A stretch of DNA of 64,000 bases from a virus (IMGVR_UViG_3300017987_000015:4965-68964), one strand, 5' to 3'. Shown: positions 27,050-53,158, counted from the stretch's first letter. Notes: a model not told the origin generated them from the letters alone. Numbers and translations: made by a program.

Positions 27050-27385
27050 ATGTCGGAATTGTATCAAGCTCTAGTGGATGGGCGGGTGACGCTGGATGGT
27101 CTTAAGGCGGAGGCCGACCCGGAGCCCAAGCAGCGGGGGAGCCAGAATCAGCAAGGGGCTCCCAAAAGTGGGGGCATGCGCAGGTTCCGCTTGAACCGCA
27201 AGCAGGACGAGAGCGGAGTTTCGGGGGAGGGCATTGTCGCCGAGGGAGTGGCGTTCTCCAATGGGCAGTGCGCCCTGCATTGGCTGGGGGATCTCTCCTC
27301 GATTGTTCTGTACGACGATATGCAGACGTTAGAATCGGTACACGGCCACGGCGGGAAAACCGAAGTGCTGTGGATGGACAATTAA
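27050..27385 (+). CDS. Candidate capsid cargo protein (leader type B plus small domain)
   Basis: MSELYQALVDGRVTLDGLKA leader; C-terminal SGVSGEGIVAEG...HGHGGKT domain. Confidence 0.65.
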   Translation: MSELYQALVDGRVTLDGLKAEADPEPKQRGSQNQQGAPKSGGMRRFRLNRKQDESGVSGEGIVAEGVAFSNGQCALHWLGDLSSIVLYDDMQTLESVHGHGGKTEVLWMDN

Positions 27386-27395
27386 GGAGTGTAGC

Positions 27396-28022
27396 ATGAA
27401 GATGAGTTCCAGAGTGGCGCAGAGGATAGCCGATCGAATCACGGACGGTCTGCTGGTATCCGGACGGGGGCGAGCAGCCAATGCCAAGGCCGGTGGCGAT
27501 GACTTTACCGATTTCGTCCGGACTCTAACGAGAGACCTGAGCCGGTTTCAGAGAGAGATATTTAGCACCGTTGACCGGGTGTGTAAAAGATTCGGTGTCG
27601 AGACCCCATCTGCTATCCGCGGCATAATTGTGGAGGATCTCGGCGAGCTCGTTGCTTACGTTCAGGCAGCAGCGGCCCGGGGCTCTTATCGATCAATTGC
27701 CGGGTTGGCGACTAACCCGGTTGCTCCTATCAGATATCTTGCTGATGACCCTGAGGAGCTGTTGGAGGAGATAGATGCAGCGACCACTTATCTGGAGAGA
27801 CGGAGGGGTGAGCTGGTGAAGCTGAGTGGGGGTATCGCCCTGTCGAGCCGCACTTTCAAGCGCCTGTTGCATGTGACGGCCGGGGGGCGGGACGAGGCAT
27901 CTAGGGAGCTGGCCAGGCATATAAAAGGGATATCGGAGGAGGTGGCCGCGGCATTCTCTGCAACCCATGAGGCTCTGGATAGGGTAGAGCGGGCGTTGTC
28001 CTCTCTGGAAAGGATTCGATGA
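27396..28022 (+). CDS. Candidate capsid cargo protein (leader type A), helical
   Basis: VAQRIADRITDGL...AKAGGD. Confidence 0.65.
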   Translation: MKMSSRVAQRIADRITDGLLVSGRGRAANAKAGGDDFTDFVRTLTRDLSRFQREIFSTVDRVCKRFGVETPSAIRGIIVEDLGELVAYVQAAAARGSYRSIAGLATNPVAPIRYLADDPEELLEEIDAATTYLERRRGELVKLSGGIALSSRTFKRLLHVTAGGRDEASRELARHIKGISEEVAAAFSATHEALDRVERALSSLERIR

Positions 28023-28387
28023 TGAGTGGGGCACTACAGCAATTTCTGAAGAGTGGGGGCGCGTTCGATGATCTGAAAGGCAACGATGGTTCCTCTCCCC
28101 CCGTTAAGGCAGGGGGAGATTTGGATTGGCTACAGGGCCGGCTGCAGGGTTCCCAGCGCGAATTGGGTGGGCTGATGCGCAGGGTACATAACCTGTCCGG
28201 GGATGTGGTCCAAGTCGGTCTGGACTTGGCCCCTGTCGGGCAGCGGGCAGAGCGGGCGGGATTCGACGATATCTTCAGTACAGCCGCCGATGCCTTCGAC
28301 CACATCGCCGATGCCAGGGAGCTTCTGGACTCCGCCGAGAAGGCCCTCAAGCAGGCGGAGAGGGTGTTGAATAGGGGAACTAGATGA
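28019..28387 (+). CDS. Candidate capsid cargo protein, helical
   Basis: ALQQFLKSGGAFDDLKG...PVKAGGD. Confidence 0.65.
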   Translation: MMSGALQQFLKSGGAFDDLKGNDGSSPPVKAGGDLDWLQGRLQGSQRELGGLMRRVHNLSGDVVQVGLDLAPVGQRAERAGFDDIFSTAADAFDHIADARELLDSAEKALKQAERVLNRGTR

Positions 28388-28899
28388 GCAACCGACCAGT
28401 AGCACAAGAGATCGCCTCCCGTATTGCCGAGGGACTAGCGGGTGGGCCAATCAAGGCCGGCGGTGACGTTGCCAGATTAGAGAGGGAGCTGGAGACCGAG
28501 TTTGGTGCATTGGCCCGTCAGGTGAAGAGCCGGGTGGAGAATGTGTGTGGCCGGTTCGGCATTTCTTTGGGGCCCAAACTGCAGCGGTGGATAGACAGAG
28601 CATTCAGAGATTTGCATATTCGGATTTCAGACACCGTTGGGTATATGATGGAGGAAGCCGGCATGCTGTCCTTGCCCGACTCCCGGCTTCCGGCTGTCAA
28701 GTTCGGCTCCAATGAGAAGCTCCTCAAAGAGGCCTCCCAGCATCTGGAGCGGGCCTACCGGGTGGCGGACATGGCGTCCAAGTCACTCAGGCGGACTGAT
28801 CCCTCTACTTCGGATCTAATCGATCGAGCTACTCGCAAGATGGCTGCTGCCAATGGAGAGATCCGGGGGGCGAAAGACCGGTTGGGAGGATACCCGTGA
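28384..28899 (+). CDS. Candidate capsid cargo protein (leader type A), paralogue of 27396
   Basis: VAQEIASRIAEGL...IKAGGD...VCGRFGI. Confidence 0.65.
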   Translation: MSNRPVAQEIASRIAEGLAGGPIKAGGDVARLERELETEFGALARQVKSRVENVCGRFGISLGPKLQRWIDRAFRDLHIRISDTVGYMMEEAGMLSLPDSRLPAVKFGSNEKLLKEASQHLERAYRVADMASKSLRRTDPSTSDLIDRATRKMAAANGEIRGAKDRLGGYP

Positions 28900-29510
28900 G
28901 CACCTATCGGCACAGGCCGTATCGAGCAGCAACCAGCGTCCCACGCCTCGTCCGACAGGTGGACGATGCAATCAAGGAGATCGACGGCATCAAGAAGGAA
29001 CTAGACACGGCCGGTACTCATTCGGCCAGGCTCAAAACCAAATTGCTAGCACTGGCCAGAGATGCCGCCGAATTCGGGGCCGAAGAAATCGCTGTTGCTG
29101 CGCGGTTCCTGTCCAAAAATGTTTTGCGCGACATGAACAGCGCAGATTCCAACCTGATCGAGGCCAAACACCAACTGGAGCAAGCGGCGCGCCGGCTGGA
29201 ATCCCGTGAAGAGAAGGCATATCCGCATATCCCGTCACCGGTCAAGGCAGGGCCTCTGGAGCCGTTCCCTACAGTGCTGAAGAACCATTGGAGATCGGTG
29301 TCCAGGATATTGAATGGGGATCTCAGCAGACAGCCCGGTGCTCTTAGGGCCAGAGCATCTGAGATAAAGAATGAGAACGGTGGGGCCCCCGATCGGCATA
29401 CTGAGGCCCTATACCAGGCGGCCGACAAGGTGGACGATGCCTTGAAGGCTCTGGATAATGCCCGGTCGGTTCTGGGCAGGGCCGGGACCATCCTGCAGCG
29501 GGCGGGATAG
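28896..29510 (+). CDS. Candidate capsid cargo protein with two helical domains
   Basis: Internal EKAY and PVKAG sites separate two amphipathic helical blocks. Confidence 0.6.
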   Translation: MSTYRHRPYRAATSVPRLVRQVDDAIKEIDGIKKELDTAGTHSARLKTKLLALARDAAEFGAEEIAVAARFLSKNVLRDMNSADSNLIEAKHQLEQAARRLESREEKAYPHIPSPVKAGPLEPFPTVLKNHWRSVSRILNGDLSRQPGALRARASEIKNENGGAPDRHTEALYQAADKVDDALKALDNARSVLGRAGTILQRAG

Positions 29511-29584: not shown

Positions 29585-30142
29585 TTGAGGAGAAAACCAA
29601 TGACTTCTGAAGGAATGAGTGGTACGCGCAACAAAATGACGGGGGCCCTGATCGTTGGGGCCCTGCTTCCGGTTTTGCTTCCAGCGCTTCTGGTGATCCC
29701 GGTGGGCACGAGCCCAGAGGAAGTTTGGGAGGCCATCCTGGCCTTCCTCACCATGGTCTGGACCTATGATGGGGTCAAGTGGATCGTGTTTCATGTCCTG
29801 CTGAACACCGTTGCAGCTTTGGCGGTTTCGATCTACACCGGTGAGTTCATCTTGGGGAAGTTCTTCGAGTTTCTGTATCGGAAACTCCTGCCCTACGTGT
29901 TGCTCTACTATGTGGCCAAGCTGGTGGGGATGGAAGTTGGCCAGGAGTGGATCGCCCCTGCTTGTTGGGCCATCATCGGGGCTACCCTGCTGGGCGATCT
30001 GGCCGACAATGCCCTGAAGCTGAACCTCCCATTACCAGAGAAGGTCAAGATGGCTCTGTCCTGGTTCGTGAAGATGGTCAAGGCCAATCCCAGCATGCAG
30101 GCCAGGGAGGCCTACCTCCGGCACTACAGGAGCAAGTTCTAG
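29585..30142 (+). CDS. Holin-like multi-TM membrane protein
   Basis: Several hydrophobic segments; upstream of the putative lysin. Confidence 0.55.
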   Translation: MRRKPMTSEGMSGTRNKMTGALIVGALLPVLLPALLVIPVGTSPEEVWEAILAFLTMVWTYDGVKWIVFHVLLNTVAALAVSIYTGEFILGKFFEFLYRKLLPYVLLYYVAKLVGMEVGQEWIAPACWAIIGATLLGDLADNALKLNLPLPEKVKMALSWFVKMVKANPSMQAREAYLRHYRSKF

Positions 30143-30178
30143 AGCCGAAGCCGGCCAGATAGGAGCGCACACTGATGA

Positions 30179-32622: not shown

Positions 32623-32625
32623 GAG

Positions 32626-32823: not shown

Positions 32824-33091
32824 TGGGTCTTCTACCCCCCCACTGACCCCCCTGCCGGATAGTCAGGCGTGGGCGGCCCTGAGAGAGTGGAACCGCAGAG
32901 CCATTGCCGGGGCCCTGAGCGTTCCGGTGGAGGTCTTGTGGGGCAAGGACCTCTGGGATGCCATCAGGGATGGTTTGGATCGGGCAGACCGGGCAATCGA
33001 CGATGTCTGCGAAAAGTGCAATATCGATAGGACAGAGATCGAGAAAGAGGCCCAGAAAGCAGACGCCGATGCCGGGGAGGATGGGGAATGA
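32795..33091 (+). CDS. Hypothetical protein
   Basis: ATG 32795, co-oriented. Confidence 0.45.
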   Translation: MASIQPTESNGSSTPPLTPLPDSQAWAALREWNRRAIAGALSVPVEVLWGKDLWDAIRDGLDRADRAIDDVCEKCNIDRTEIEKEAQKADADAGEDGE

Positions 33092-33474
33092 GCACTATGG
33101 CACTGGTTGACCGGATAGCCGAGAGGGTGGCGGCCGGCCTGAAGGGATACGGAAGTCAGTGGCGGGTATGCGATTACAAGGGGAAGCTGGCAATCACGCT
33201 TCCGGCAGCCCCAGACTGGAATGAGCCGTTTATGGTCAAGCCGTACCACGTCTCTAATATCCCGGTCAGTCAATATCGGGAGCTGCTAGATTGCCCGGTT
33301 CGTAACCTCCGTGGGAATGTGGGGACGGTTGCCCCGATCGGTGGGAGACCCAAACGCCTGGATACTTCGGGGTGGAAAAGAATCGAGGAGAAGAAACGAG
33401 TACGCAAGCCCCCCAAGGGCAGGGATTACGACTATGTGTGGGAGCGGGGGGAATGGAGGAAAGAGTGGGTATAG
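33088..33474 (+). CDS. Candidate capsid cargo protein (leader type A)
   Basis: ALVDRIAERVAAGLK|G. Confidence 0.6.
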   Translation: MSTMALVDRIAERVAAGLKGYGSQWRVCDYKGKLAITLPAAPDWNEPFMVKPYHVSNIPVSQYRELLDCPVRNLRGNVGTVAPIGGRPKRLDTSGWKRIEEKKRVRKPPKGRDYDYVWERGEWRKEWV

Positions 33475-33494
33475 GAGGAGACAGGCCGGATCTG

Positions 33495-34506: not shown

Positions 34507-34547
34507 GGGCCCCATAGAGAGGGCCAATCCAAGTGGAGGGATGAAAG

Positions 34548-37538: not shown

Positions 37539-40205
37539 GTGGCCAATAGACTGGCAAAGATAGCCGGCCAACTCGGCGCGGCTGTCGGCACCTTTCAAAA
37601 GAATAGGATGCAAGCTGTGCGGGGGAAACGGGCCCCGTTTCTGGCATCTATGGCTCAGCAGGGCAAATGGCGGGGGAGCGGCAGCGGATCAACCCGCCAA
37701 GCCCAGCGTCGGGCAGTCCAGAACAGTTGGGTGTTTGTGGCTTGCTCCTTCATATCTCGACAGGTCAGTGCTGCGGAATTCCAGGTATTCAAGCACCAGA
37801 AGGGGAAAAAGGACCCGGTGCGGGTGCCCGGCCATCCTCTGGAGGTTGTACTGCGCAGGCCCAACCCCTGGATGGGTAGCTCGTATATGTGGCAATACTC
37901 GGCCTGGTGGCAGCAACTGAATGGAAACTCCTATTGGTATTTGGGGCTGGACCGGGGAGGGGAGCTGGCAGAAATCTGGCCCATGCCGTCGGAGGATGTG
38001 GAACCGTTCCCAGGAGACGAAGAACGGTTTGTGGACTTCTATCGTTACACGGTGGGGGGGCATGCCTATGATATCCCGGCCGAGTATGTGGTTCACACTA
38101 AGCTGGTTAACCCCTTCGATGTCTTTCGGGGGATGAGCCCCCTGAAAGCAGCCATTTTGCCATCGGACGTGGATCTGTTCATGTCGAGGTGGAATGCGGC
38201 ATTTTTCGGTAGAGACAACACTATGCCCTCTGCCATTATCAACATTTCGAGTGAGGACCCAGAACATCCTCTGGAAGATTCGGACATAGCGGCCCTGAAG
38301 GAGGATCTTAGGCAGGATTACCACAGCATCAAGCGCAAGGCCGCCATCGTCAGCGCGGCCAAGCTGGAGGTGGAGCTCCTGGGGTGGAATCCCAAGGATT
38401 TAGATTTTATCCAGGGCAGACAGTTTACCAGAGAGGAAATTTATGAGATATACGGCATTCCCCCTGGATTGCTGGACAAGAATGCCACCTATGCCAATAG
38501 CGCTAATGCTCGAATGGTCTTTAACAATTACACACTTTGGCCCCTGCTGGTTCTGACAGCGGAGCAGCTAACGGCGGAGCTCGTTTGGCCCTTATACGGG
38601 GAATCGTTCTCGGCCGGGTTCATCGATGTTAGGGAGACCAATAGGGAAACAGAGCTTCAAGAATTGGGCTCAGCCGGCCCCTACCTAACAATCGACGAGA
38701 TCCGGGCCAAATTCTGGAAATTGCCCCCTCTACCCGATGGCCGGGGAGAGATCACTGCCGATGAATCACAGCGCGGGGATCTGGGCGGGGGCGGGGACAA
38801 CCTGTTCGGCAGGGAACCGCCGGCGGGGCGGCCACCCGAAGGCCCCCCATCTGAGAGCCCACCGCCCAGCGATAAAGATCGGAGCCTGCCCCTTCGGGAG
38901 CCGCCAGCAGGGCAGCCCCTCCTCGAACCCGGGCCCGCAGATGAGCCCCCCAAGGGCAGCGCCAGCAATGAGCTGAGAGAGAGAATCGGCCGGCAGGATC
39001 TCCGGAATTGGAGAACCAAGGCAATTCGCAGTGTATCTAATGGGGAACCACTGCCAGTGGGCTTTCGTAGCAAGTTCCTGCCGGGGGAAGCCAAGACTGC
39101 AGTCTCCTCTGGGCTAAGGGCGCTGCAGGCCGTGCGCGGGGCTGCCGCGGACGATGTGGTGTTGAATTCTGTGAAGGCCCTATTTCAGGAGGTCAAGGTA
39201 AAACACTACCCTTTTGATCGGGGGGGTGCAACGGCCCCCATGAAGGCAGGGAGCAGCCGCCCATGGGATAGATTGGAAAGAACCGTACGCAAGCAAGTCA
39301 AGGAGGCGTTGGAGAGACAGGTTGGGCGTATCCTGGACCGAATTACAAAGGACGGGGAGGCCGTCGTAAATGATGAGGCCTTCTGGACCGAGCATCGACA
39401 ATCTATCCTGGATTCTTTAATGAACAGCCTGTCCAGGATCACCGAATTGGGGGTTGATAAAGCCCGCAGTAAGGTGAGGAGGGATGTAAGGGATTCGATC
39501 GATTGGGACCTTGTCAATAAGAGAGCCGAGGATTGGGCCAGGCAGCATGCCGCCGATCTGGTGACCCAGGTCACAGAGACTACCAGGGAGGAAATGCGCA
39601 GGGCTGTGGGGGATTGGATCAACTACGGGGAAGCCCTCCCAGACCTACAGAGGCGCATAGAGGGCATCCTGAAGGAGGCCGAGGGGGACGCAAGAGAGGT
39701 TGCCGACAGGATCAAGAGGATGGTAGAGGAGCTGAAGGATAGGCTCCCAGATGAGACAGAAGAGGCTATCCTCCAGGCCATCCAGAGGGCGGGTGGTGAT
39801 GTGGCCAGGTTGCGACGGGAATTGGGCAAAGTGGTAGGCAAGCTGGATGTGCCGTCATTGGTGGAGGTCCTAAAGCCCAGGGTAGCAGACCCAGCCAAGA
39901 TCAAAGAACGGGCCCGCTTGATTGCGCAGACCGAATCGACGGGGGCGTATGCCTCGGGGAATGCGGAGGCGTGGCAAGAGGCTGGAGCGAAACCGGCTGT
40001 ATTCAAACCGCCGGCCCATCCGGGATGCCGCTGCTATCTGCAACCAAAGAAGCTGGGGGATATTTGGGTGATGGTTTGGTACACTGCCCGTGATGAGCTG
40101 GTATGCGAAGCTCCGATCGATACGCCTTGGGGCAAGGTCAATGGGTGCAAAGCACTGCACCGAGTGGTGGTGTCTGAGGGGCCCAAATTGGGCCGAAGGG
40201 TGTGA
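37539..40205 (+). CDS. Portal protein (HK97 family) fused to a MuF-like minor head domain
   Basis: HPL..L.RPNP, GNSYW, FRGMSPL, IYGIPPGLL, ATYAN, TIDEIR; C-terminal RARLIAQTE...PPAHPGCRC. Confidence 0.9.
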   Translation: MANRLAKIAGQLGAAVGTFQKNRMQAVRGKRAPFLASMAQQGKWRGSGSGSTRQAQRRAVQNSWVFVACSFISRQVSAAEFQVFKHQKGKKDPVRVPGHPLEVVLRRPNPWMGSSYMWQYSAWWQQLNGNSYWYLGLDRGGELAEIWPMPSEDVEPFPGDEERFVDFYRYTVGGHAYDIPAEYVVHTKLVNPFDVFRGMSPLKAAILPSDVDLFMSRWNAAFFGRDNTMPSAIINISSEDPEHPLEDSDIAALKEDLRQDYHSIKRKAAIVSAAKLEVELLGWNPKDLDFIQGRQFTREEIYEIYGIPPGLLDKNATYANSANARMVFNNYTLWPLLVLTAEQLTAELVWPLYGESFSAGFIDVRETNRETELQELGSAGPYLTIDEIRAKFWKLPPLPDGRGEITADESQRGDLGGGGDNLFGREPPAGRPPEGPPSESPPPSDKDRSLPLREPPAGQPLLEPGPADEPPKGSASNELRERIGRQDLRNWRTKAIRSVSNGEPLPVGFRSKFLPGEAKTAVSSGLRALQAVRGAAADDVVLNSVKALFQEVKVKHYPFDRGGATAPMKAGSSRPWDRLERTVRKQVKEALERQVGRILDRITKDGEAVVNDEAFWTEHRQSILDSLMNSLSRITELGVDKARSKVRRDVRDSIDWDLVNKRAEDWARQHAADLVTQVTETTREEMRRAVGDWINYGEALPDLQRRIEGILKEAEGDAREVADRIKRMVEELKDRLPDETEEAILQAIQRAGGDVARLRRELGKVVGKLDVPSLVEVLKPRVADPAKIKERARLIAQTESTGAYASGNAEAWQEAGAKPAVFKPPAHPGCRCYLQPKKLGDIWVMVWYTARDELVCEAPIDTPWGKVNGCKALHRVVVSEGPKLGRRV

Positions 40206-41527: not shown

Positions 41528-41893
41528 ATGGGAAGGAATCGAATGGCCGAAGGATTGGTCAACAGGATAACTGCCCAAATTGTTGGCGTACGCTACCCGG
41601 CCAGTGGGCTAAAGGCCGGATTTGGGTCTGTGGAGGGCCTAATCCAGGCGATGAAGCGGGCCGGCTGGAGAAACGTGACAGAATCTGGGGACGCGGTTAT
41701 TGGAGAGGCCCGCACTTCTGCCGGCGAATTCAGCATAGAGGCTGTGCAAGCGGTGAACAATGGCGGTGAACCCAACTTCTGGAGTGTGTTCGGCATCATC
41801 GATGACCTTGATGCTGAGGTTCACATGCGATACTCCTTGGGGCGGGTTCCCGGGCCCAGGGATGTGGAGAGAGTGATCGAGCGGGAGCTGTAG
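41528..41893 (+). CDS. Candidate capsid cargo protein (leader type A)
   Basis: GLVNRITAQIVG...GLKAG. Confidence 0.6.
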   Translation: MGRNRMAEGLVNRITAQIVGVRYPASGLKAGFGSVEGLIQAMKRAGWRNVTESGDAVIGEARTSAGEFSIEAVQAVNNGGEPNFWSVFGIIDDLDAEVHMRYSLGRVPGPRDVERVIEREL

Positions 41894-41905: not shown

Positions 41906-44722
41906 ATGCCATATGGTGTATTCAAAACCGGTTCCGGAAGTGACCCCTACTGTGTCTACAAGACTGATGGTGACGGGCACAGAATGGGGGAGGCATTCGG
42001 GTGTCACCCCTCAGAAGAAGAAGCAAGGGGGCAGATTATGGCTATAGGGGCTAGATCCCATACCAGGGCGTCGGTTGGGGATTTTCTGTTATCGGTTAAG
42101 GCCAATGTGGGCGGCCTGATGGAGGGCCAAATCCATCAGGTGTTTTCCGTCATCGCCGATCAGCTCTTGCAATTGGGCGTGATTGACAGAGACCAGCGTA
42201 TAGAGCTGTCGTCAGCCATTGGGGATTCATTGGACAGCTTGCACAAGGTCATCGAGAAGCACGGCCTGGACAACACCGAACTGTCTGCTGAGGCAGTGGA
42301 AACCCTGATGGGCGGCCGGCTCCTGGGGGGTGGGGAGGATAAGGGAGCTCCTCCTCCAGCCGAACGACAGCCCCAGCCGTCAGCACAGCGTCCCCAAGAA
42401 GAGCAGGCGGCTAGGGCCCTGACGCTTGAGGAAACCCTGGTTTCATCGGGTAGCGGTCTTAAGGCTGTGGGCGATGGCTGGGTAGAGGGATATCTAGTAG
42501 TTTGGTCTCCCAACAAGCAGCGGGATCTGGGAGGCGACTATTTCGATGACAAAACAGATCTCGGCTGGGAAGGGCGGGAAAGCAGAACCGCACTTTACCA
42601 CCACGGCCTGGATCACACGATGGGCAAGAAATCTCTAGGAAGCGGCTGGGAATTTGTGCGGCGCGACGATGTGGGCTTGTGGGTTCGCACACAGTTGGAC
42701 ATGCGCGATCGTTACGAGAGTGCTATCTACAAACTGTGCGAGATGGGCAAGATGGGGCTCAGTAGTGGAACGGCATCGCACATGATAGTCCGTGAGGACG
42801 ACGGCCGCATGGCTAGATGGCCGATCGTTGAGGGCAGCTTTACCCCTGCCCCGATGGAACCACGAACGATGGTCTCCCCTCTGGGTGAAATCGCGGGTAG
42901 AGCGGTTCCGTTTAAGTCTTTGCTGTCAGAACTCGAAGGCGGTGTTATAGGGGCACCTAACGCTAGAGGGCCCGAGAACACTCGCGGGGGGATGGGCAAT
43001 GACGATTGGATTAGTTGGTACCTTGGCATACTGGATCGGGAGGTAAAAGCGATGACAGTAGATGAATTGATTGGGACCCTCAGAGAGTTGGTCCCGGAAC
43101 TGAACGATGACCAGCTACAGCAGATCCAGTCTATCCTCCAGTTGGGAATGGGCGAGACCCCAGTGGGGGGAGACGAGGAAATGCGAGCGTGGACGGGCGG
43201 CGGCTACATCGACCCATGGAAAGCCGCTGCTGAGCTGGACACTATCCTGGACACTATCCAGAGCGTGGTTCAGCTCGATGACGACAAGCTGGCCAAGATC
43301 ACTTCTGTTCTTCAGTTGGCCCTGCAGGGAGCGGCCGAGGAGGCTGGAGAAGGGAGCTATATGGAGGACTACGAGGACGAGGTCGTGGCTCCCATGGCTG
43401 AAGAGGTGGTCGCTGGTGAGGAGGTAACAGAGGAGGAAATTCGATCGATCGTCAGTGATGCGGTGTATGGAGCGATGGGCAGCGGCCCGAGAGTGAGACC
43501 CCGCCGTCGGGCAGTCTCTCGTCCCCCGTATGCTTTCACTCCGTCCGCACGCGTTGGAGGTAACGATATGTCAGCAGGCAAAGCGGCCCAGGTTCTTCGC
43601 TATGGGCATCCGGATGCGGCGGTCAAGGCCATCGCCACAGACTTGTACGGCGGCAATTACGAAGCGCTGCGGTATAAACAGCACAAGGCCTTCGGGGCAT
43701 TCTTGAGACACGGTGAGCGGGCCCTGAGTGATGACTACCAGCGGGCTATGAAGACCGTTGTACTCACTCCTACCCAGTTGAAGGCATTCGCCTTGAGTGG
43801 GGTCGATGTTTCGTCCTTCAAGACCGAGATGTCGGAAGTCGTGGACGATCTGGGTGGGTGGTTGGCCCCAGAGGATTTCCGCACGGACATGATCGAGCGG
43901 CTGCCCGGCTTGACAGTGGTTCGGCGTCGGGCGGATGTGCTGCAGACTGGGTCAGACATGATGTCCCGCGTCAAGGTGACCGGTGGGGGTGATCGATATA
44001 CCTCCGCAGTCCGGGTGACTTGGGTTGGAGATGTGCCTTCCGAGGGAGACGCTGATACCAATCCCACCTTCGGCGTTGAGCGCACGCCGATCCACATTGC
44101 CAAAGCAGTTGTGTACGTCCCCATGTCCTTGCTGGAGGATACGCCCTTCCCGCTGGTGGAGAAGATCAACCAGTGGGTTTCTGAGGCGTATGCCCTCGAC
44201 GAGGATGAGCAGTTTCTGGTGGGCGATGGCATCGCCAAGCCCGAGGGCATCCTGCCCGACGAGGGCAACGGCAACGATCTGGAAAGCGTGGCCTCTGGGG
44301 ATGCCGACACTGTCACGTTCGACGGATTGGTAGGCATGCGCTATGGGATTGGCCGCCAGTATCGGCAAGGTGCATGCTGGACCATGAACGACTCTACCGC
44401 CAGCGTGATCGCCAAACTGAAAGATGGAGACGGGCGGTACCTGTGGCAAACCAGCAATCAGGAAGGCGAGCCGGACCGCATGCTGGGCTACCCGGTGGAA
44501 ACCTCCGAGGCCATGCCAGATGTAGCGGCCGGTGCCTTCCCCGTTACCTTTGGGAATTACAACCAGGGCTACCAGATTGCCGATCGTATCGGCATGAGCG
44601 TGGTTCGGGATGATGTCACCAAGGCGGAGGAGGATCTGGTCAAATTCATCTTCCGGCGTCGGCTCGGTGGTCAGCTCAAGGCTGAGTGGGCCTTCTGCGT
44701 GATGGAGATTTCGGCCAGCTAG
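41906..44722 (+). CDS. Fused prohead protease - scaffold - HK97-fold major capsid protein
   Basis: Protease: VEGY, DLGGDYF, LYHH, GLWV, GLSSG, EGSFTPAPMEP. Acidic scaffold. MCP: GGWLAPEDF, EDEQFLVGDG...PEGIL, MN, LKDGDGRYLW, MLGYPV, FGNY. Confidence 0.92.
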   Translation: MPYGVFKTGSGSDPYCVYKTDGDGHRMGEAFGCHPSEEEARGQIMAIGARSHTRASVGDFLLSVKANVGGLMEGQIHQVFSVIADQLLQLGVIDRDQRIELSSAIGDSLDSLHKVIEKHGLDNTELSAEAVETLMGGRLLGGGEDKGAPPPAERQPQPSAQRPQEEQAARALTLEETLVSSGSGLKAVGDGWVEGYLVVWSPNKQRDLGGDYFDDKTDLGWEGRESRTALYHHGLDHTMGKKSLGSGWEFVRRDDVGLWVRTQLDMRDRYESAIYKLCEMGKMGLSSGTASHMIVREDDGRMARWPIVEGSFTPAPMEPRTMVSPLGEIAGRAVPFKSLLSELEGGVIGAPNARGPENTRGGMGNDDWISWYLGILDREVKAMTVDELIGTLRELVPELNDDQLQQIQSILQLGMGETPVGGDEEMRAWTGGGYIDPWKAAAELDTILDTIQSVVQLDDDKLAKITSVLQLALQGAAEEAGEGSYMEDYEDEVVAPMAEEVVAGEEVTEEEIRSIVSDAVYGAMGSGPRVRPRRRAVSRPPYAFTPSARVGGNDMSAGKAAQVLRYGHPDAAVKAIATDLYGGNYEALRYKQHKAFGAFLRHGERALSDDYQRAMKTVVLTPTQLKAFALSGVDVSSFKTEMSEVVDDLGGWLAPEDFRTDMIERLPGLTVVRRRADVLQTGSDMMSRVKVTGGGDRYTSAVRVTWVGDVPSEGDADTNPTFGVERTPIHIAKAVVYVPMSLLEDTPFPLVEKINQWVSEAYALDEDEQFLVGDGIAKPEGILPDEGNGNDLESVASGDADTVTFDGLVGMRYGIGRQYRQGACWTMNDSTASVIAKLKDGDGRYLWQTSNQEGEPDRMLGYPVETSEAMPDVAAGAFPVTFGNYNQGYQIADRIGMSVVRDDVTKAEEDLVKFIFRRRLGGQLKAEWAFCVMEISAS

Positions 44723-46233: not shown

Positions 46234-46539
46234 ATGCCCAATTTGGACTACGCTTTAGCATCCGGATGGGTGACATTTGACCAGCTAAAGGCAGGCGGAG
46301 ACGTCAATGTCAAGCCTCAGATCGATAGATTGGTTAGGGCAGAATACCAGAAGTACAATGCCCTGCTTGCCGATATGCAGATCGCCCGTGGGGCCCGGCT
46401 CAGGAAGTTGGAAAGGCTGCAGGGGCAATGGTCCAGACACATGGGTGAGGTGGACAAGATCGGGAGGAAGGAAAGGCCGGAGTATGTGGATCTGCGGATG
46501 CTGCAGGGCTTGATCAGAGGTCGTCCCCCAACCGCATAG
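46234..46539 (+). CDS. Candidate capsid cargo protein (leader type B)
   Basis: MPNLDYALASGWVTFDQLKAGGD; GGAG RBS. Confidence 0.6.
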   Translation: MPNLDYALASGWVTFDQLKAGGDVNVKPQIDRLVRAEYQKYNALLADMQIARGARLRKLERLQGQWSRHMGEVDKIGRKERPEYVDLRMLQGLIRGRPPTA

Positions 46540-47952: not shown

Positions 47953-49152
47953 ATGGCCAAAGAGCCGTGGCAAAGACAAGCGGGAACCATAACCCGGAAT
48001 CTCGTTAGGACTCTTCGTGATTGCAGGAAGGACATAGAGGCAGCTATCAAGCTCATTCCAGGCAGCCGCAGTAAGGACACTATGTCACAGATACTGGCCG
48101 AGGGAGATTTGCATCTGGCTAGGTGTATCAGAAGCATCGAGGATGTGGCCTATGTCATGGCCAGTGGGCCCTACACTCCTGTTCGATCAGCCGGGCAGGG
48201 GGGGCTGTTGGGGGCTCTGAACTCGGGGGAGGTCTCGTTTGATAGCCTGAAATACGAACGTGACGGGCCCACTATGACCCACTGGCAGGATTCAGCGGGC
48301 AATCGTATCACGATCGGGGATGTGGTCTCCTTTAGACACCACGGCAAGGATTTCCAAGGCGAGATCATCGACTCTGGGCATTACAACCCGATAGTGCGGG
48401 TTGGTCTGACTGCTTACGAGGTCTCTCCCAGGGCATTGGCCTTGAAGAGGCGGGGTGTGGGAAAGGCCATCCCTGGGAAAGCGAGAATCAGGCCGGGCGG
48501 CAGGGTTCGGGTACTGCAGGGCAGGCACGCCGGCGAATCCGGACGGGTAACGGCGGTAATGTCCGGCGGCATTCCCGAGGCGAATGTGGAGTTAGACAGC
48601 GGTCTGCGCAGGACATTCCGGCTCGATGATCTGACTACCGATATGGAGGCCTCACTGGGTAAGGCTGCCCCCGTGGGATCGATGAGGATCAAACCGGGCC
48701 AACCGGTGGTGATAAAGCGAGGAAGGTTTGCCGGCCAACCGGGCAGGGTTGTGGCAGTGTGGAGAAGGACCGGGGATGCCACAGTACGCCTGCACAGGGG
48801 AGGACAGGAGATCTTCTGTTTTGACAATCTGGACACCAACGTGGCCCCGCAGAGATCCTTGAGCACGGGGAGAATGTCCAGGGAGCAAGCCAGAGGAACA
48901 GCCGAAGAGCTGCTAGGACAATATCGGTGGCGGTTGGGCCACATCGATCGAGCAGGGAGGGGTTGGGCCGTCACCTCGGAGGGGGTGGGTATAGGCAGGG
49001 GGGTAGTTGTCTCGATATCCTTCCAGATGGATGACACCGGAGAGCCCAGCAGCCCGATAACTATTTATGGGTTCGATGCCAACGGCAACGAAATGAGCGG
49101 CACGTCGCATTCCATGCTAAGCCCAAGCCGGGCGGCCAAGCAGGTAAGGTAG
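47953..49152 (+). CDS. Candidate cargo polyprotein with KOW/SH3-like repeats
   Basis: Internal leader B (LLGALNSGEVSFDSLK); two PG..V....GR.AG..GRV..V repeats. Confidence 0.65.
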   Translation: MAKEPWQRQAGTITRNLVRTLRDCRKDIEAAIKLIPGSRSKDTMSQILAEGDLHLARCIRSIEDVAYVMASGPYTPVRSAGQGGLLGALNSGEVSFDSLKYERDGPTMTHWQDSAGNRITIGDVVSFRHHGKDFQGEIIDSGHYNPIVRVGLTAYEVSPRALALKRRGVGKAIPGKARIRPGGRVRVLQGRHAGESGRVTAVMSGGIPEANVELDSGLRRTFRLDDLTTDMEASLGKAAPVGSMRIKPGQPVVIKRGRFAGQPGRVVAVWRRTGDATVRLHRGGQEIFCFDNLDTNVAPQRSLSTGRMSREQARGTAEELLGQYRWRLGHIDRAGRGWAVTSEGVGIGRGVVVSISFQMDDTGEPSSPITIYGFDANGNEMSGTSHSMLSPSRAAKQVR

Positions 49153-49169: not shown

Positions 49170-49565
49170 ATGGCGATGCGGCAGAGTGCCCTTATAGACA
49201 GAATCTCGGGGGGCATAATCAAGTCCTTAACCGGAAAAGAGTGGGACACTCCCAAGAATTATGGCCCGGAAGCGGAAGCCGCCAAGCGGGCGATCCGTGA
49301 GGGATGGAACAGCCCAGCCCGATTCTCTGTGAAGGAGCAGAGATGGAAGCCGAGGATGAGCACTAGTCAGGACGTCGCCATGAAGCTCATGGCAGAAGCT
49401 TGGGCCCACCATCGATCCGGTGGGCTTCGAGAGATACCTCTGCGGCCAATTAACAGATCCACGCTTAGAAGTCTGCAATCTAGAGGATGGGTGGATAGCA
49501 GACTGCCAAAGCTGACGGCTCTGGGACTGGCCGTAGTGCGGGAATTCTGGCCGGCATACTTGTGA
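49170..49565 (+). CDS. Candidate capsid cargo protein (leader type A) with a wHTH-like C-terminus
   Basis: ALIDRISGGIIK|S; STLRSLQSRGWV...LTALG. Confidence 0.55.
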   Translation: MAMRQSALIDRISGGIIKSLTGKEWDTPKNYGPEAEAAKRAIREGWNSPARFSVKEQRWKPRMSTSQDVAMKLMAEAWAHHRSGGLREIPLRPINRSTLRSLQSRGWVDSRLPKLTALGLAVVREFWPAYL

Positions 49566-50022: not shown

Positions 50023-50031
50023 GGAGGAAAC

Positions 50032-50316
50032 ATGAAGGCAATCGACCCAGTTGGAGTGGACGGTGGGGGGGGCATCCCCGAGATCACGGTTCTATGCCCG
50101 TACTGTGGGGAACCGGTGCTGATGAAACGGCACCCGGATAGGCCGTGGAGATTGGTGGCGGCAGCGGGCTGCAAGGGCAGCAAGCCCCTGCCATTCCTAG
50201 AAACCAACATTCCTGTGGACATCGAAGAAGGGGAGGAGGAACCGGTAGGTCTTTCAGTGGGGGAGCCGCTTGAGGAGCAGCCTGAGGAGGGGGAAGCAGA
50301 GAGTGAAACTATATAG
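50032..50316 (+). CDS. Zn-ribbon hypothetical protein with an acidic tail
   Basis: CPYCG; GAGGAGG RBS. Confidence 0.5.
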   Translation: MKAIDPVGVDGGGGIPEITVLCPYCGEPVLMKRHPDRPWRLVAAAGCKGSKPLPFLETNIPVDIEEGEEEPVGLSVGEPLEEQPEEGEAESETI

Positions 50317-51709
50317 CATTATTACGGGCACTGGCAGGTGCGGCACATCCTATGCTGCCAAATTGCTGACCGAGGCCGGCATGCAGTGTACGCATGAACG
50401 AGTATGGGGGTTCCACGATGCCGATTGGGAAAACCCTGAGGAACCGGCGGAGTCTAGCTGGGTGGCTGCCCCATTCCTGAATGGGCCGCTGGCCAAGGAT
50501 GCCAGGGTGATCCACCTGGTACGGCATCCTAAGCATGTTATTGAATCCTTGGTGAGGACCAACTTCTTTGATGAGAATACGGGGCGTAGGGATTGGCCGT
50601 ACACCCAGTTCGTGTACGACAGAATGCCGGACCTGCTGAACATGGAATCGCAGATCGACCGAGCTGCAGCGTTTTACGTTCGATGGAACCGGATGATCGA
50701 GGATTCAAGGCCGGACGCGACCAGGGTACCCGTGGAAGCCGCGGAGCCGGTCTGGGAACAACTACCAAACCCCGATTGGCGCATTGATGAGTTGGGAATG
50801 GAGCAGGGCAAGAGGTATCTCTTGACCGGTGATCCTGGGGCCCTGCTGAAGGAGTACGGTCTCGAAGCCCCAGAAGACATTCGGGTCTCTAATAGAGAGA
50901 ACCGGCATGGGGGCGTTTGGAGAAAAGTCCCGCTGAACCAGATACCGGATGTGGAGATCCGGAGTGATGTAGTAGAGATGTGTAAGGAGTACGGATACGA
51001 TCCCTGTCTCGGAGAGGACCCCAGGGCATTTTGGGCGGTATTGCTAGAGCGGAACGTGCAATGGAATTCGATCGATGCCCTGTTCGATCTGGCTAATGGG
51101 GCTACAATGGGGGGGCATACCAGAATATCAATCCCGTATGGCAGGACGGATACTTCCAGGAACCACATCGTCCGCTGTTTCCAGGAATTGGCCCAGAGCC
51201 CGAACGACATGATCATCATGTTGGATTGCGATCATGTTCATCCTCCCAATACGATAGACCGGCTGTTCAGACACGACCCAACGTTGGGAGTAGTGGCAGC
51301 TCTGGCCTTCAGAAGGGGGCCTCCCTACGACCCGATGTTTTTTGTTTGGGAGGAGAATGGGAGGAGAAGCAGGTTTGTTGCTCCCGCAGAGTGGAGACGG
51401 GGGGCCCTATATGAGTGTGATGCGATAGCCACCTGTGCTATAGGCATTCGCCAGTGGGTGTTTGTGGAGCTGGACGAAGCGGGATCTCCATTCCCGTATT
51501 TTCGATACTCATATGAGCGCGGCTATCAGATGACGGAGGACATCTTCTTTGCCATGAGCTGTATGCGGGCCGGCATTTCGCAGTACTGTGATACCTCCCT
51601 GGTGACCCCACATCTATCCACGATTGGTGTGGACGAGAACACGTGGGAGGAATTCAAGCAGAAGAACCCCTCTATCCTGAGTTCTCAGGGAAAGGAAATC
51701 GATCGATGA
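50303..51709 (+). CDS. Sulfotransferase-like / GT-A glycosyltransferase fusion
   Basis: ITGTGRCGT...HE and IHLVRHP (PAPS-binding-like); RNHIV...MLDCDH and TEDIFF...CDT...H (GT2-like). Confidence 0.7.
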   Translation: MKLYSIITGTGRCGTSYAAKLLTEAGMQCTHERVWGFHDADWENPEEPAESSWVAAPFLNGPLAKDARVIHLVRHPKHVIESLVRTNFFDENTGRRDWPYTQFVYDRMPDLLNMESQIDRAAAFYVRWNRMIEDSRPDATRVPVEAAEPVWEQLPNPDWRIDELGMEQGKRYLLTGDPGALLKEYGLEAPEDIRVSNRENRHGGVWRKVPLNQIPDVEIRSDVVEMCKEYGYDPCLGEDPRAFWAVLLERNVQWNSIDALFDLANGATMGGHTRISIPYGRTDTSRNHIVRCFQELAQSPNDMIIMLDCDHVHPPNTIDRLFRHDPTLGVVAALAFRRGPPYDPMFFVWEENGRRSRFVAPAEWRRGALYECDAIATCAIGIRQWVFVELDEAGSPFPYFRYSYERGYQMTEDIFFAMSCMRAGISQYCDTSLVTPHLSTIGVDENTWEEFKQKNPSILSSQGKEIDR

Positions 51710-52533
51710 CAGCACCAAATGCAGCGCGTAGTGGAGTTGGCTTTAGATCCATTCGGGTGTTCGCTTTAAACTCTGACGGCTACCTCGATGCAGAAAGCAC
51801 CAACGTGGCGTACGAGGGTGTGGCCATCACCGGAGCCCGGGCCCTCACCTTGAATGATCCAGAGCCCCAGCAGATTGTCCATCGCGGCGATGATCGGGTG
51901 TTCGCCCTGGATACCCTGCCCCCAACCGATCCAATCAGTGGAGAGATGCGGGTCGGCAAGACCAGTGACACCGTAGATGCCGTCCTCACCGATGATAAGG
52001 CCTTCTATGTCAAGAGTGGTGCAGCACGTCTGTTCGGCATCGGCACAGACAATCGGGGGGACGAAAGTCAGGTTGGTGTGCTGGCCTATCGGCAAGCCCT
52101 GGATACAGACCCGGACGGCACCGATTTCGGTGTCAGGCGTTGGGAATTCCGCATATTCCCCAAGGCCTACATTATCCCCAGGGAGGGAGGTCTAGTAGAT
52201 ACCCCAGAGGAACGGGCATATACTGTCCGCCCGTTGTTCGTCAAGGAGCATCTGTGGGGTGTGGCCTTCTCGACCAGCACTGAGGGATTCGAGCAAGCGC
52301 AGGGCCTACGGGGCATAGCCAAGAACAAGCCCAAGGTCATCGCCTATCAAGGAGACAACACCGTCACGACTTTTGCCCTGGACCCGGTGGCTGTCAATAC
52401 AGACAATATCGGGGTATGGGTGAACGGGGTGGATTATTCTGGCACGGCCACCCTAGCCACAAACCAGGTCGACTTTGGTACCTCTCCCCCAACCACCAGT
52501 GCCAACATCACCATTTTCTACGAACATGCATAG
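51706..52533 (+). CDS. Major tail tube protein with a C-terminal beta domain
   Basis: Position upstream of the chaperone and tape measure; size and composition. Confidence 0.6.
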   Translation: MTAPNAARSGVGFRSIRVFALNSDGYLDAESTNVAYEGVAITGARALTLNDPEPQQIVHRGDDRVFALDTLPPTDPISGEMRVGKTSDTVDAVLTDDKAFYVKSGAARLFGIGTDNRGDESQVGVLAYRQALDTDPDGTDFGVRRWEFRIFPKAYIIPREGGLVDTPEERAYTVRPLFVKEHLWGVAFSTSTEGFEQAQGLRGIAKNKPKVIAYQGDNTVTTFALDPVAVNTDNIGVWVNGVDYSGTATLATNQVDFGTSPPTTSANITIFYEHA

Positions 52534-52589
52534 CAGAGAGGGCATATGACGAAGTAAAGGGGGTCATGAGACCCCCAGGAGGCAAATCG

Positions 52590-52886
52590 ATGTTAGTGAG
52601 AGCGAGAGACCGCAGGGGCCGGCCGCGGCTGGTTCGGGTGTCCCCGATAAAAGCCGGGCGCGCATACAGTTCGCGTAGTGGGCTCAGGGCCCAAAAGGAA
52701 AAGGCCCCAAAGGAGCTCAGTGATGCGGCCAAGTCTGTTCATCAGGCAGAGCGGGGGATCAGCAGCCTGGCCGGCAGCGCCACCAGCAAAGAAGGGGCCC
52801 GGTATTATAAGGATCTGGAGAAAGCCCTGCAGGATGCCAACCGCGCCATCATTCAGATCTTGAGAGTCAACGGTTGGAGGATATGA
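52590..52886 (+). CDS. Candidate capsid cargo protein (Arg-rich leader type C)
   Basis: AGGAGG RBS; MLVRARDRRGRPRLVRVSPIKAG then a helical hairpin. Confidence 0.6.
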   Translation: MLVRARDRRGRPRLVRVSPIKAGRAYSSRSGLRAQKEKAPKELSDAAKSVHQAERGISSLAGSATSKEGARYYKDLEKALQDANRAIIQILRVNGWRI

Positions 52887-53158
52887 TGCCAATGAGAAGA
52901 GGGCGCAGAGTTTTGGTTCGGATACGCCGGCCGGCGCTGAAGGACTGGCGGCAGGATCAAACATACGGGCCCAGAACCAAGGACCTGGTGCACAGTCTTG
53001 GTCAATCGAAACGGCACATAGAGCGAGCGTGGGCTCAGGCCAATGCCCTGGGTGCGGCAGTTCGCAGAGAGGGAGTGGTCCCAAGCGGGTTGCCCGGCGA
53101 ATTGCTGTCTGCCCTACAGACGGCCATTCGTATCATCGAGGAGTTGGAGGGCTTCTGA
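52883..53158 (+). CDS. Candidate capsid cargo protein (Arg-rich leader type C)
   Basis: MMPMRRGRRVLVRIRRPALK then a helical hairpin. Confidence 0.55.
   Translation: MMPMRRGRRVLVRIRRPALKDWRQDQTYGPRTKDLVHSLGQSKRHIERAWAQANALGAAVRREGVVPSGLPGELLSALQTAIRIIEELEGF

Follow-up and report, generated by a model that had tools for sequence, protein, structure and literature searches.

Leader-directed loading of proteins into the phage head has already been documented in T4, in phiKZ-like giant phages and in P1. In T4, several internal head proteins have a common short N-terminal leader (CTS), which is removed by the prohead protease gp21, and the prohead cleavage site follows Glu. HK97-type proteases have Lys specificity. 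In HK97 itself, the N-terminal scaffold-like region is presumably removed at a Lys-small bond approximately 11-12 residues before a conserved G-x-L-x-P element, and we know of no further cargo loading by leader peptides in this phage. Most targeting peptides of encapsulins are C-terminal. In published work, the T4 leader suffices to target a protein and is cleaved off at a site of the kind used in capsid maturation (PMC9024508), the first 30 residues of DarB send a reporter into the P1 capsid (PMC9024508), 14 sites in nine proteins are cut in SPN3US (PMC10052503), and the encapsulin targeting peptide, for example EKRLTVGSLR of M. xanthus, docks cargo inside the HK97-fold shell via three hydrophobic residues and one basic residue (PMC10402063).

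The present analysis concerns a window of 64,000 nucleotides (positions are counted from its first nucleotide) of an uncultured 69-kb phage, which is known from metagenomic contigs alone, has siphovirus-like tail genes and was binned with a Chloroflexota (Dehalococcoidales) MAG. As in T4, several late proteins of this phage share a short N-terminal leader, and its protease has the gp21 fold (Z 9.7); the differences are that the putative cleavage site follows Lys, that the protease, which is part of the capsid polyprotein, groups by transitive homology with S78 (HK97) rather than T4 enzymes, and that there are two or three leader classes instead of one; there is no similarity in sequence. The giant phages phiKZ and SPN3US are comparable in having many sequence-unrelated head proteins with N-terminal propeptides and one prohead protease; however, they are 240-kb myoviruses, their cleavage motif is different from that of the window phage, and to our knowledge their propeptides do not share leader sequences as those of the window phage do. 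The Dar system of P1 provides a parallel for cargo that is carried inside the head and delivered together with the DNA, a route proposed here, but the window cargo has no homology to the Dar proteins. With HK97 gp4/gp5 the phage has in common an HK97-family capsid protein and, by transitive homology, an S78-type protease, with a putative Lys-small maturation bond at a corresponding distance ahead of the capsid core; it differs from HK97 in that protease, scaffold and capsid protein are one ORF. A literature search returned no leader-directed loading in phages of medium size whose protease is Lys-directed and of HK97/S78 type, and no case in which two or three leader classes are exchanged between small unrelated proteins. 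If confirmed, the system would imply that head-cargo systems are more widespread and modular than now known, and it would provide a sequence rule for predicting packaged or injected proteins in uncultured phages as well as short tags with which foreign proteins could be loaded into HK97-type capsids.

Inventory and distribution of the leaders

Small late genes of this phage have leaders that are modular and conserved at the protein level. Eleven ORFs bear such leaders (four of type B, five of type A and two of type C; Table 1), fewer than the approximately 15 genes of the original prediction; each of the peptides quoted there was found at its position in a + strand ORF. The ORFs are scattered across the head, neck and tail modules, not just next to the head genes, and leader matches are confined to late + strand coding frames, with none in the early arm or in other frames (10,160 segments). 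The leader residues are conserved as protein, not as DNA, the conserved positions being mostly encoded by different codons. Two internal leaders occur in longer ORFs (g47953 and L003:16261).

Table 1. Leaders and head-related features of the window (a slash marks the putative cleavage position)
Feature	Position	Strand	Remarks
Type B leader, g27050 (ORF 27050-27385)	27050..27106	+	MSELYQALVDGRVTLDGLK/A; leave-one-out rank 1
Type A leader, g27396 (ORF 27396-28022)	27396..27488	+	ends AK/AGGD at K31; window-only leave-one-out rank 2
Type B leader, g28019 (ORF 28019-28387)	28019..28078	+	ends DLK/G at K20; leave-one-out rank 4
Type A leader, g28384 (ORF 28384-28899)	28384..28455	+	ends IK/AGGD at K24
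g28896	28896..29510	+	helical protein, internal VK/AG at K117; C-terminus weakly similar to g28019
Type A leader, g33088 (ORF 33088-33474)	33088..33144	+	LVDRIAERVAAGLK/G; window-only leave-one-out rank 1
Portal-MuF fusion	37539..40205	+	Pfam portal, residues 64-391, E 5.4e-52
Type A leader, g41528 (ORF 41528-41893)	41528..41614	+	LVNRITAQIVG...GLK/A at K29; regex match; poor rank 509
938-aa polyprotein: N-terminal region, prohead protease, scaffold-like region, HK97-fold major capsid protein	41906..44722	+	Pfam and alignment of relatives
Prohead protease domain, residues 171-382	42416..43051	+	transitive Peptidase_S78 homology and AF2 fold
Putative capsid maturation site F638-K639/T640	43817..43825	+	12 residues ahead of LGGWLAPED
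Type B leader, g46234 (ORF 46234-46539)	46234..46290	+	LDYALASGWVTFDQLK/AGGD; leave-one-out rank 1, E 0.0094
Internal type B leader, g47953 (ORF 47953-49152)	48187..48252	+	...LLGALNSGEVSFDSLK/Y at K100; leave-one-out rank 1
Type A leader, g49170 (ORF 49170-49565)	49170..49223	+	LIDRISGGIIK/S; regex match; poor rank 187
Type C Arg-rich leader, g52590 (ORF 52590-52886)	52590..52652	+	...RRGRPRLVRVSPIK/A
Type C Arg-rich leader, g52883 (ORF 52883-53158)	52883..52942	+	...RRGRRVLVRIRRPALK/D; P1' Asp off-motif

The late enrichment anticipated by the original prediction was found: of 41 late ORFs, 11 have [LVIMF]K[AGST] within residues 8-45, as against none of 36 early ORFs (Fisher p 5e-4), with the reservation that the early gene calls are crude and that the motif set, like the regexes and the enrichment windows, was chosen after the data were seen. 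In seven of ten N-terminal leaders the Lys lies at residues 18-21; by the stricter count, the Lys of hK[AGST] lies at residue 16-21 in 6/41 late ORFs (0.83 expected). KAGGD occurs four times in the six-frame translation, each copy being located 20-31 residues into a + strand ORF. In some leader copies P1' is Tyr, Asp or Met, and hydrophobic-K-small is also present where cleavage is implausible, for instance in the conserved first strand of the protease domain and, within the capsid core, at residue 924. An HMM of 10 capsid maturation sites retrieved the sites of other relatives and no leader (best unrelated matches at most 6 bits); therefore, the resemblance between leaders and capsid sites is limited to hydrophobic-K-small.

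Type B leaders and their occurrence in relatives

Type B (consensus L..L..G.h[ST]F[DE].LK[AGT]) is a statistically robust family with six copies in two phages, four of which are in the window. The leave-one-out HMM ranked these copies 1, 1, 4, 1, 1 and 1 among approximately 10,150 non-training six-frame segments (five of six top-ranked), and a model of the window copies alone gave the two copies of the relative G001 as its best two non-self matches, with E values of 0.022 and 0.14. The N-terminal similarity between g27050 and g46234 has a score expected in 0.15 pairs in an all-against-all comparison of 2,926 pairs. In the AF2 model of g27050, the leader is predicted to form two short helices (residues 3-9 and 15-20), followed by a low-confidence linker (21-42) and then a compact domain (43-108). 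In g28019, whose ATGA start overlaps the stop of g27396, an additional site, VK/AGGD, is present at K30. g46234 occupies the slot of L003:13953, immediately upstream of the g46559 homologue, and g47953 has an in-frame ATG at 48157 and KOW motifs downstream of its internal leader.

G001 is the sole close relative, and its structural proteins are approximately 40-63% identical to those of the window. The type B leader is appended there to non-homologous proteins, and the modularity originally claimed, i.e., the same leader on non-homologous proteins, holds both in the window and in G001. G001 also has a basic leader of its own, MSKR..RAIxKRLK[GA], on five ORFs that resemble one another only over the first 20-45 residues. 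Between the two phages the structural genes are conserved, whereas the cargo of the leader ORFs is not, implying that the leaders are located on variable genes between conserved ones; the sole exception is the cargo of L003:13416, which matches residues 140-250 of g40732 (E 6e-27). The expectation that related phages would have the same leaders on different proteins was borne out for type B in G001 and failed in approximately 170 other related loci, as none turned up in 48 other capsid-related viral loci (except one type-A-like ORF in L002), in 45 genome loci or in 79 terminase-related loci. A search of 5.8 billion proteins revealed no leaders among the 8,000 candidates scored.

Type A and type C leaders

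The type A leader family is moderately supported and does poorly when tested blind. Its five copies, two of which are in paralogues, ranked 2, 11, 1, 509 and 187 in the window-only leave-one-out analysis, and the regex L[VI][DN]RI[AST] has three occurrences in 969,051 six-frame residues, each at the N-terminus of a window ORF. When all N-termini were compared with one another without prior selection, the paralogue pair and g27050/g46234 were the only ones to exceed shuffles clearly. The leader of g33088 is 54% identical to that of L003:4641 over 13 aa, and the coding score of g49170 is the weakest of the leader set. The adjacent type C ORFs g52590 and g52883, which align weakly lengthwise (27% over 92 aa, E 0.087), are probably a tandem paralogue pair; the coding score of g52883 is weak.

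Capsid polyprotein, prohead protease and portal-MuF fusion

Residues 650-934 of the polyprotein match Pfam Phage_capsid (PF05065) with E 8e-58 and 196.5 bits (gathering cut-off 24.2), and there are PDB sequence matches to HK97-family capsid proteins. The window protease domain alone matches no Pfam family at E<=0.1. Since Peptidase_S78 (PF04586) is matched by 20 of the 24 sequences aligned with this domain (28-50% identical, best E 3.2e-9), the family membership of the window copy is one of transitive homology. The AF2 model of the domain (pLDDT 75.7) has T4 gp21 as its best match among 48,161 PDB chains (Z 9.7, rmsd 3.0, 131 residues aligned), followed by herpesvirus proteases (Z 5.8 and 5.0), with unrelated rows at 4.3 or below. 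H62, H63, S116 and S141 of the domain are invariant in the 24 sequences, and S117 is nearly so; these are candidates for the catalytic His and Ser. By homology and modelled fold, the prohead protease domain in the polyprotein is genuine, and the relatives with Peptidase_S78 together with the gp21 fold bear out the premise of an HK97-type prohead protease.

The hydrophobic-K-small motifs reported for the capsid precursor were found at V64-K, L185-K, F336-K, V380-K, W438-K and F638-K/T, the last of these ahead of GGWLAP. The LKA ahead of the protease domain, which had been counted among them, belongs to the conserved domain in all relatives and therefore need not be a cleavage site. At the junction between the protease end and the scaffold lies VK/AM (VK/A being residues 380-382), at the very position of the stop codon and following new ATG of G001 and L002. 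At the capsid maturation position, h-K/[TAS] is conserved in eight of 10 relatives, with R instead in L010 and L007, and by analogy with HK97 F638-K639/T640 would be cut during capsid maturation. The C-terminal part of the portal-MuF fusion matches PHROG 'head morphogenesis' families, and the fusion contains a window-specific insertion with RAGGDVARLRREL. The motif expected in its linker is M568-K-A-G (residues 568-571, nt 39240-39251). All three fused forms (window, G001 and L002) have hK/A in the portal-MuF linker, and hK/A is found at both fusion junctions, protease/scaffold and portal/MuF linker.

Proposed explanation and alternatives

The leaders may be N-terminal propeptides that target the capsid and are then cleaved off, a Lys-type counterpart of the systems of T4, phiKZ and P1; this is our preferred explanation, held with somewhat less than even confidence. 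For the leader proteins we infer docking, cleavage and a location in the head. A short helical leader (16-31 residues) would dock its protein inside the shell while the procapsid is being assembled, the docking partner being either the scaffold-like region or the HK97-fold capsid protein at its inner face. The prohead protease in the same 938-aa polyprotein would cut after the Lys of the hydrophobic-Lys-small site at the leader end, and the same protease would also have to cut the polyprotein itself. Once mature, the proteins would remain inside the head, several of them with AGGD at the N-terminus.

It is unlikely, yet by no means far-fetched, that the leaders are uncleaved docking or oligomerisation helices for a common partner (chaperone, portal/neck, DNA or host factor), with no link to head cargo or proteolysis and with Lys-small as the helix end. 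The predicted helicity of the leaders and their amphipathic or basic character, the spread of the leader ORFs over head, neck and tail modules and the failure of the capsid-site profile to find the leaders all agree with such helices; against them stand the regular position of the Lys, the recurrence of K/AGGD behind two leader types and the presence of hK/A at two polyprotein junctions that must be processed or are recently fused. Uncleaved docking helices would still mark approximately ten orphan proteins with a common interaction partner. That the leaders are left over from gene duplication and N-terminal exon shuffling in one phage lineage, with no shared present-day function, is distinctly unlikely. 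The motif residues are retained despite diverged codons, and type B is kept on non-homologous cargo in G001, whose structural proteins have diverged to the identities given above, so that purifying selection on the peptide would be needed; relics would nevertheless fit the three paralogous window ORFs and the type C pair, probably paralogous as well, the restriction of the AGGD family and the leaders to these phages in the searches made, and the g28384-like piece inserted into MuF. Chance resemblance combined with the selection made in the original prediction is hardly credible and is already largely refuted for type B, which passes the leave-one-out and cross-genome tests. Type A pairs do score where 1-9 of 2,926 pairs are expected by chance, and the regexes and enrichment windows are post hoc; against chance stand the score of g27050/g46234, expected in 0.15 pairs, the four occurrences of KAGGD, always in the same N-terminal context, and the restriction of L[VI][DN]RI[AST] to window ORF N-termini.

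Two further explanations concern type B. By analogy with encapsulins, the peptide V-[TS]-F-[DE]-x-L-K might dock diverse proteins in inner-face pockets of the HK97-fold shell, its Lys doubling as P1 and the built-in protease releasing the cargo. This idea, which we regard as a long shot, derives from the spacing h-T-h-x-x-L-[KR] of EKRLTVGSLR, which equals that of the type B core, a likeness of a seven-residue pattern only; encapsulin peptides differ in that they are not cleaved off. If true, the phage would represent a living intermediate between phage capsids and encapsulin nanocompartments, with naturally programmable multi-tag loading by at least two orthogonal tags. We consider it very improbable that type B leaders imitate the N-terminal motif found in gp6-like head-tail connectors and dock at the portal/neck rather than inside the shell. 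The best type B HMM matches in the 45 genome loci are the first residues of three ORFs (L098, L096 and L100; 7.1, 6.1 and 4.5 bits) that are bona fide Phage_connect_1 (E 2e-14 to 9e-11), but these matches are non-significant (E 2.9-20), and a reciprocal HMM of 11 connector N-termini has no type B leader in its top 30 matches. Likewise, g47016 and its G001 homologue, whose genes are flanked by type B ORFs in both phages, weakly match the N-terminal third of Phage_connect_1 (E 0.019 and 0.053), but PF05135 has no match in g27050, g28019, g46234, L003:13953 or L003:14669, and g47953 matched KOW families only (E<=0.01; from residue 69 on, likewise at E<=1). Moreover, g27050 and g28019 adjoin the terminase gene, not the neck genes.

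Cargo proteins

A family of cargo proteins, designated 'AGGD-helical', has a type A or type B leader ahead of K/AGGD. As g27396, g28019 and g28384 are paralogous over their whole length (E ~1e-7), the description of the cargo as mostly unrelated was overstated. The suggested role of the cargo as anti-defence or takeover effectors is without support, every cargo domain being without an assigned function, and the four 'AGGD-helical' paralogues resemble a prohead-core or scaffold-like component more closely than an injected effector. The cargo of g27050 is a widespread 68-aa beta domain, and the phrog_7499 match in this protein is limited to residues 37-111. Because most of the 3,277 representatives of this domain family start at a Met equivalent to residue 42-43, and the leader is missing from all 20 homologues inspected, the leaders are, as judged from these sequence comparisons, add-ons to the cargo. 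Residues 24-52 of g28384 are 58% identical to residues 750-776 of the portal-MuF fusion.

Leader peptides of the late genes

The leaders are short N-terminal peptides ending in a hydrophobic residue and lysine before a small residue (hK↓A/G/S/T, the arrow marking the putative cut). All of the leader peptides quoted in the original prediction are present in the window, and 11 leader-bearing ORFs were recognised where about 15 genes had been claimed: four of type B, five of type A and two of type C (Table; ORFs are named gNNNNN after their first nucleotide). Codon usage is frame-specific and typical of the phage's genes in all 11, the weakest cases being g49170 and g52883. In most of them the start follows a Shine-Dalgarno-like motif or overlaps the gene before it as ATGA/GTGA.

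Positions of the main structural genes and of the leader-bearing ORFs in the window and in its closest relative, G001 (locus L003)
Feature	Coordinates or ORF	Strand	Remark
Large terminase	25408-27039	+	Terminase_6N
Portal fused to MuF-like head-morphogenesis domain	37539-40205	+	
Capsid polyprotein	41906-44722	+	938 aa
Type B leaders	g27050, g28019, g46234, g47953		internal copy in g47953
Type A leaders	g27396, g28384, g33088, g41528, g49170		
Type C leaders	g52590, g52883		
G001 type B leaders	L003:13953, L003:14669		flank the g46559 homologue
G001 basic leader	L003:4641, 9494, 13476, 18760, 16591		MSKR..RAIxKRLK[GA]; five ORFs; internal at 16591

The type B leader, with the core V-[TS]-F-[DE]-x-L-K, is real. 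Leave-one-out HMMs ranked the left-out copy 1, 1, 4, 1, 1 and 1 among about 10,150 six-frame segments taken from the window, G001 and 48 other loci. With an HMM built from the four window copies, the best two non-self matches were the G001 pair, and the top three matches of an HMM built from that pair were three window copies. The type A leader is moderately supported. In the window-only test its left-out copies ranked 2, 11, 1, 509 and 187. A search of 969,051 six-frame residues with the pattern L[VI][DN]RI[AST], defined post hoc, gave three matches, all of them 6-10 residues from the start of unrelated window ORFs, and a slightly wider, likewise post hoc pattern selects exactly the five type A ORFs. 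A type-A-like leader, MNERQIDQITGKVVRQLK followed by A, opens the ORF directly after the portal-MuF gene in L002, a fragment of the second close relative. Support for type C is weak, and a leader on unrelated cargo was not borne out for it: g52590 and g52883 lie side by side and show weak similarity along their full length.

The expected enrichment of the motif in late genes was found: [LVIMF]K[AGST], as defined post hoc, is present between residues 8 and 45 in 11 of the 41 late ORFs and in none of the 36 early ORFs, the early gene calls being crude (p 5e-4). The leader lysine falls at residue 16-21 in six of the 41 late ORFs (0.83 expected), and KAGGD occurs four times, each at a leader end. 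Eight of the nine identical leader residues of g27396 and g28384 use different codons, as do most other identical residues, so selection is on the peptide and not on a DNA or RNA element; this divergence rules out a DNA-level repeat as the source of the leaders.

Exchange of leaders between cargo proteins

Comparison with G001 revealed no detectable homologues of the window leader ORFs; the leader ORFs of G001 occupy gaps between conserved genes, and the similarity among them ends after 20-45 residues. The protein following the basic leader of L003:13476 is homologous to residues 140-250 of g40732, which is without that N-terminal leader. A beta domain of 68 residues forms the cargo of g27050. 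It occurs in 3,277 representative clusters, most of them starting at the Met that corresponds to residue 42, and the 20 inspected all lack the leader. Within the window, the paralogues g27396, g28019 and g28384 carry leaders of type A, B and A, respectively, before K↓AGGD, and in g46234 a type B leader immediately precedes K↓AGGD. As cargo differs in G001, the inspected g27050 homologues are without the leader and the AGGD paralogues carry different leader types, the leaders behave as exchangeable modules.

The idea that related phages carry the same leaders on different domains thus held for G001 but not for more distant loci. Leaders were absent from 48 capsid loci except for the type-A-like L002 ORF, and none was found in 45 distant prophage loci from a genome scan or in 79 terminase-related loci. 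A type B profile search of the longer class of 5.8 billion proteins, with only 8,000 candidates scored, returned five proteins, all from the window or G001. A degenerate type B DNA pattern gave six loci in viral contigs, all chance matches inside unrelated frames; as Leu was fixed to CTN, this is a weak negative.

Two ORFs have internal leader-like segments. In g40732 (40732-41526), the stretch ..VDEVARSLKALG..SVKA.. sits just upstream of the domain that follows the N-terminal basic leader in G001. In g47953 (47953-49152), two KOW motifs lie downstream of the internal type B leader, and the G001 counterpart after the connector gene is an analogous ORF whose internal leader is of the basic kind. 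Upstream of the g47953 leader and of this G001 one are in-frame ATGs with SD-like motifs, where nested starts are possible.

Prohead protease and putative cleavage sites

The polyprotein consists of an N-terminal region, a prohead protease, a scaffold-like region and an HK97-fold major capsid protein. Residues 171-382 alone gave no Pfam or PHROG match, and Peptidase_S78 was matched by 20 of the 24 relatives aligned with them. Among 48,161 PDB chains, the AlphaFold model of the protease domain matched T4 gp21, a prohead protease, best (Z 9.7); herpesvirus proteases came next.

The putative capsid maturation site, 12 residues before the start of the LGG[FW]L.PED core, reads hydrophobic-K then T/A/S in eight of ten relatives, with R in place of K in L010 and L007. 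HK97 itself is cut after Lys at this position; the HK97 PDB alignment for the mature N-terminus stops short of the N-terminal region. G001 and L002 encode the protease and the scaffold-capsid part in two separate ORFs. In the window the two are fused at a junction that reads V-K↓A-M, and M383 lines up with the initiator Met of the G001 ORF. The portal-MuF linker has hK↓A in all three phages with the fusion, near the start of the separate MuF genes of distant relatives. These placements fit a protease that cleaves behind a hydrophobic-Lys pair when a small residue follows; the leaders have the same kind of ending. The LKA before the protease domain, listed originally among the recurrences of the motif, proved to be a conserved part of the domain's first strand in all relatives; therefore, not every listed motif instance need be a site.

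Regarding the layout of this locus, the single window ORF corresponds to two ORFs split by a stop at L003:10001-12782 and L002:5292-8375. The distant relatives L004-L010 have shorter protease-capsid fusions of 680-780 aa, with the first ~170 residues missing or in short form only. In the N-terminal region of two protein relatives, P0002 and P0003, a Cys-rich module of ~60 residues (..CP.C...M......L.L..LK.MP..LL..LC..FG.DEGFFTRC) lies at different positions; it is absent from the window.

Cargo proteins

For 10 of the 11 leader ORFs, Pfam and PHROGs searches for function returned only phrog_7499 (unknown function; g27050) and weak DUF4398/coiled-coil matches of g52590 below the cut-offs; g47953 has KOW motifs. 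The g27050 model had no Foldseek match in the PDB at E<=0.001, only uncharacterized proteins in BFVD, and a best VIA-align Z of 6.0, within noise. An Atlas search with g27396 gave generic long-helix look-alikes only. The proposed anti-defence or takeover role of the cargo thus drew no supporting evidence from Pfam, PHROGs or structure searches. The AGGD-helical paralogues, with no homologues found outside the window, are long-helix proteins and may serve in the prohead core or in a scaffold-like role rather than as effectors.

A window-specific MuF insertion at portal-MuF residues ~690-765 (39600-39830) contains RAGGDVARLRRELGKV, a stretch that shares 58% identity across 29 residues with the beginning of the putative mature part of g28384. 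This resemblance points to recombination of the leader-cargo family with a head protein.

Proposed mechanism and alternative explanations

The best-supported explanation, plausible and partly supported, is a capsid-targeting propeptide system of the T4/phiKZ/P1 kind adapted to an HK97/S78 protease. The leader would dock its protein in the assembling procapsid, the protease, delivered within the capsid polyprotein, would remove the leader, and the mature protein would remain in the head; we infer loading, cleavage and injection as its central steps. The layout of the g27050 model fits such a propeptide, with two short helices at 3-9 and 15-20, the second having Lys19 at its end. A linker of low confidence then extends to residue 42, ahead of a compact domain. 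[quoted passage not shown] In a limited search of open-access text, no account was found that links leader-tagged cargo to an HK97-type protease.

Alternatively, the leaders could be docking helices that stay uncleaved. On this point, the shared hK-small motif recurs at the capsid site, the fusion junction and the portal-MuF linker, but an HMM of ten capsid maturation sites retrieved other capsid sites and no leader. A complex prediction for g46234 with the scaffold-capsid part (383-938, 11-row alignment), run without controls, scored 0.00, a value from which no conclusion is drawn. The leaders could also be relics of shuffling, or their resemblances could be due to chance. In all-against-all comparisons of the N-termini of 77 ORFs (residues 2-32), 0.15 pairs were expected at the score of the g27050/g46234 pair, and type A pair scores were mostly within the chance range. 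Another explanation, that type B mimics a connector N-terminus, draws on weak matches to the first residues of genuine Phage_connect_1 proteins of alphaproteobacterial prophages; however, the reciprocal connector N-terminus profile does not find the leaders, and this reading was rejected. In addition, the type B core resembles in pattern the M. xanthus encapsulin targeting peptide (PMC10402063), a resemblance that serves as a lead only.

Phage genome, relatives and possible host

The virus record (68,964 bp, direct terminal repeats, rated complete) is mostly covered by the window. The GC skew changes sign near 22 kb, where the genes also switch from the minus to the plus strand; the plus arm also encodes connector-like, tail, tape-measure and distal tail genes. 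The polyprotein had 751 matches in known phage records, in the capsid third only and none covering 80%. As a query it found five protein relatives, the closer being P0002 and P0003, whose polyproteins are 43-47% identical. Scanning viral contigs with a single protein found no lineage members; an alignment scan yielded 49 loci, L003 and L002 being the only close ones. Among the polyprotein relatives and these loci, G001 alone (40.4 kb) is syntenic with the window; a metagenome scan with a connector alignment returned solely a longer, 61-kb contig identical to it. Genes common to both, at 29-63% identity, are the terminase, portal-MuF, g40202, polyprotein, g44798, g46559, connector-like g47016, g49576, g50270, major tail, chaperone and tape measure.

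A genome scan also located the window sequence on a contig of 68,896 bp that is binned in a MAG with the title uncultured Dehalococcoidales bacterium. The next-best matches are in Chloroflexota MAGs (35-39% identity), so that a Chloroflexota host is no more than a lead. Of the capsid relatives carried by genomes, the nearest (L062, L063 and L064) are in Herpetosiphonaceae and Dehalococcoidia MAGs.

Several further features were observed. Between the terminase and portal genes, a lysis-like, envelope-acting block (29585-36215) encodes a holin-like protein with four TM segments (Phage_holin_4_1, E 0.0015, below cut-off), another protein that combines TM and coiled-coil regions, 654-aa and 272-aa orphans, and a protein that has a lipoprotein signal and, at its C-terminus, a phage depolymerase domain (E 3.2e-9). 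The MuF-like domain at L002:1446-3428 has a ~280-residue insertion exactly within the conserved PPAHP-CRC motif, which starts with Cys, ends ...VKN before Cys and looks like an intein. Among the neck/tail genes, a 479-aa protein (50270-51709) weakly matches sulfotransferase and glycosyltransferase-2 families and is also conserved in G001, at 40% identity. In the early arm, the minus-strand ORFs 19524-19102 and 11902-11705 share a near-identical lipoprotein-type signal peptide (..LLALLALLTAC..) and form the highest-scoring N-terminal pair in the whole window.
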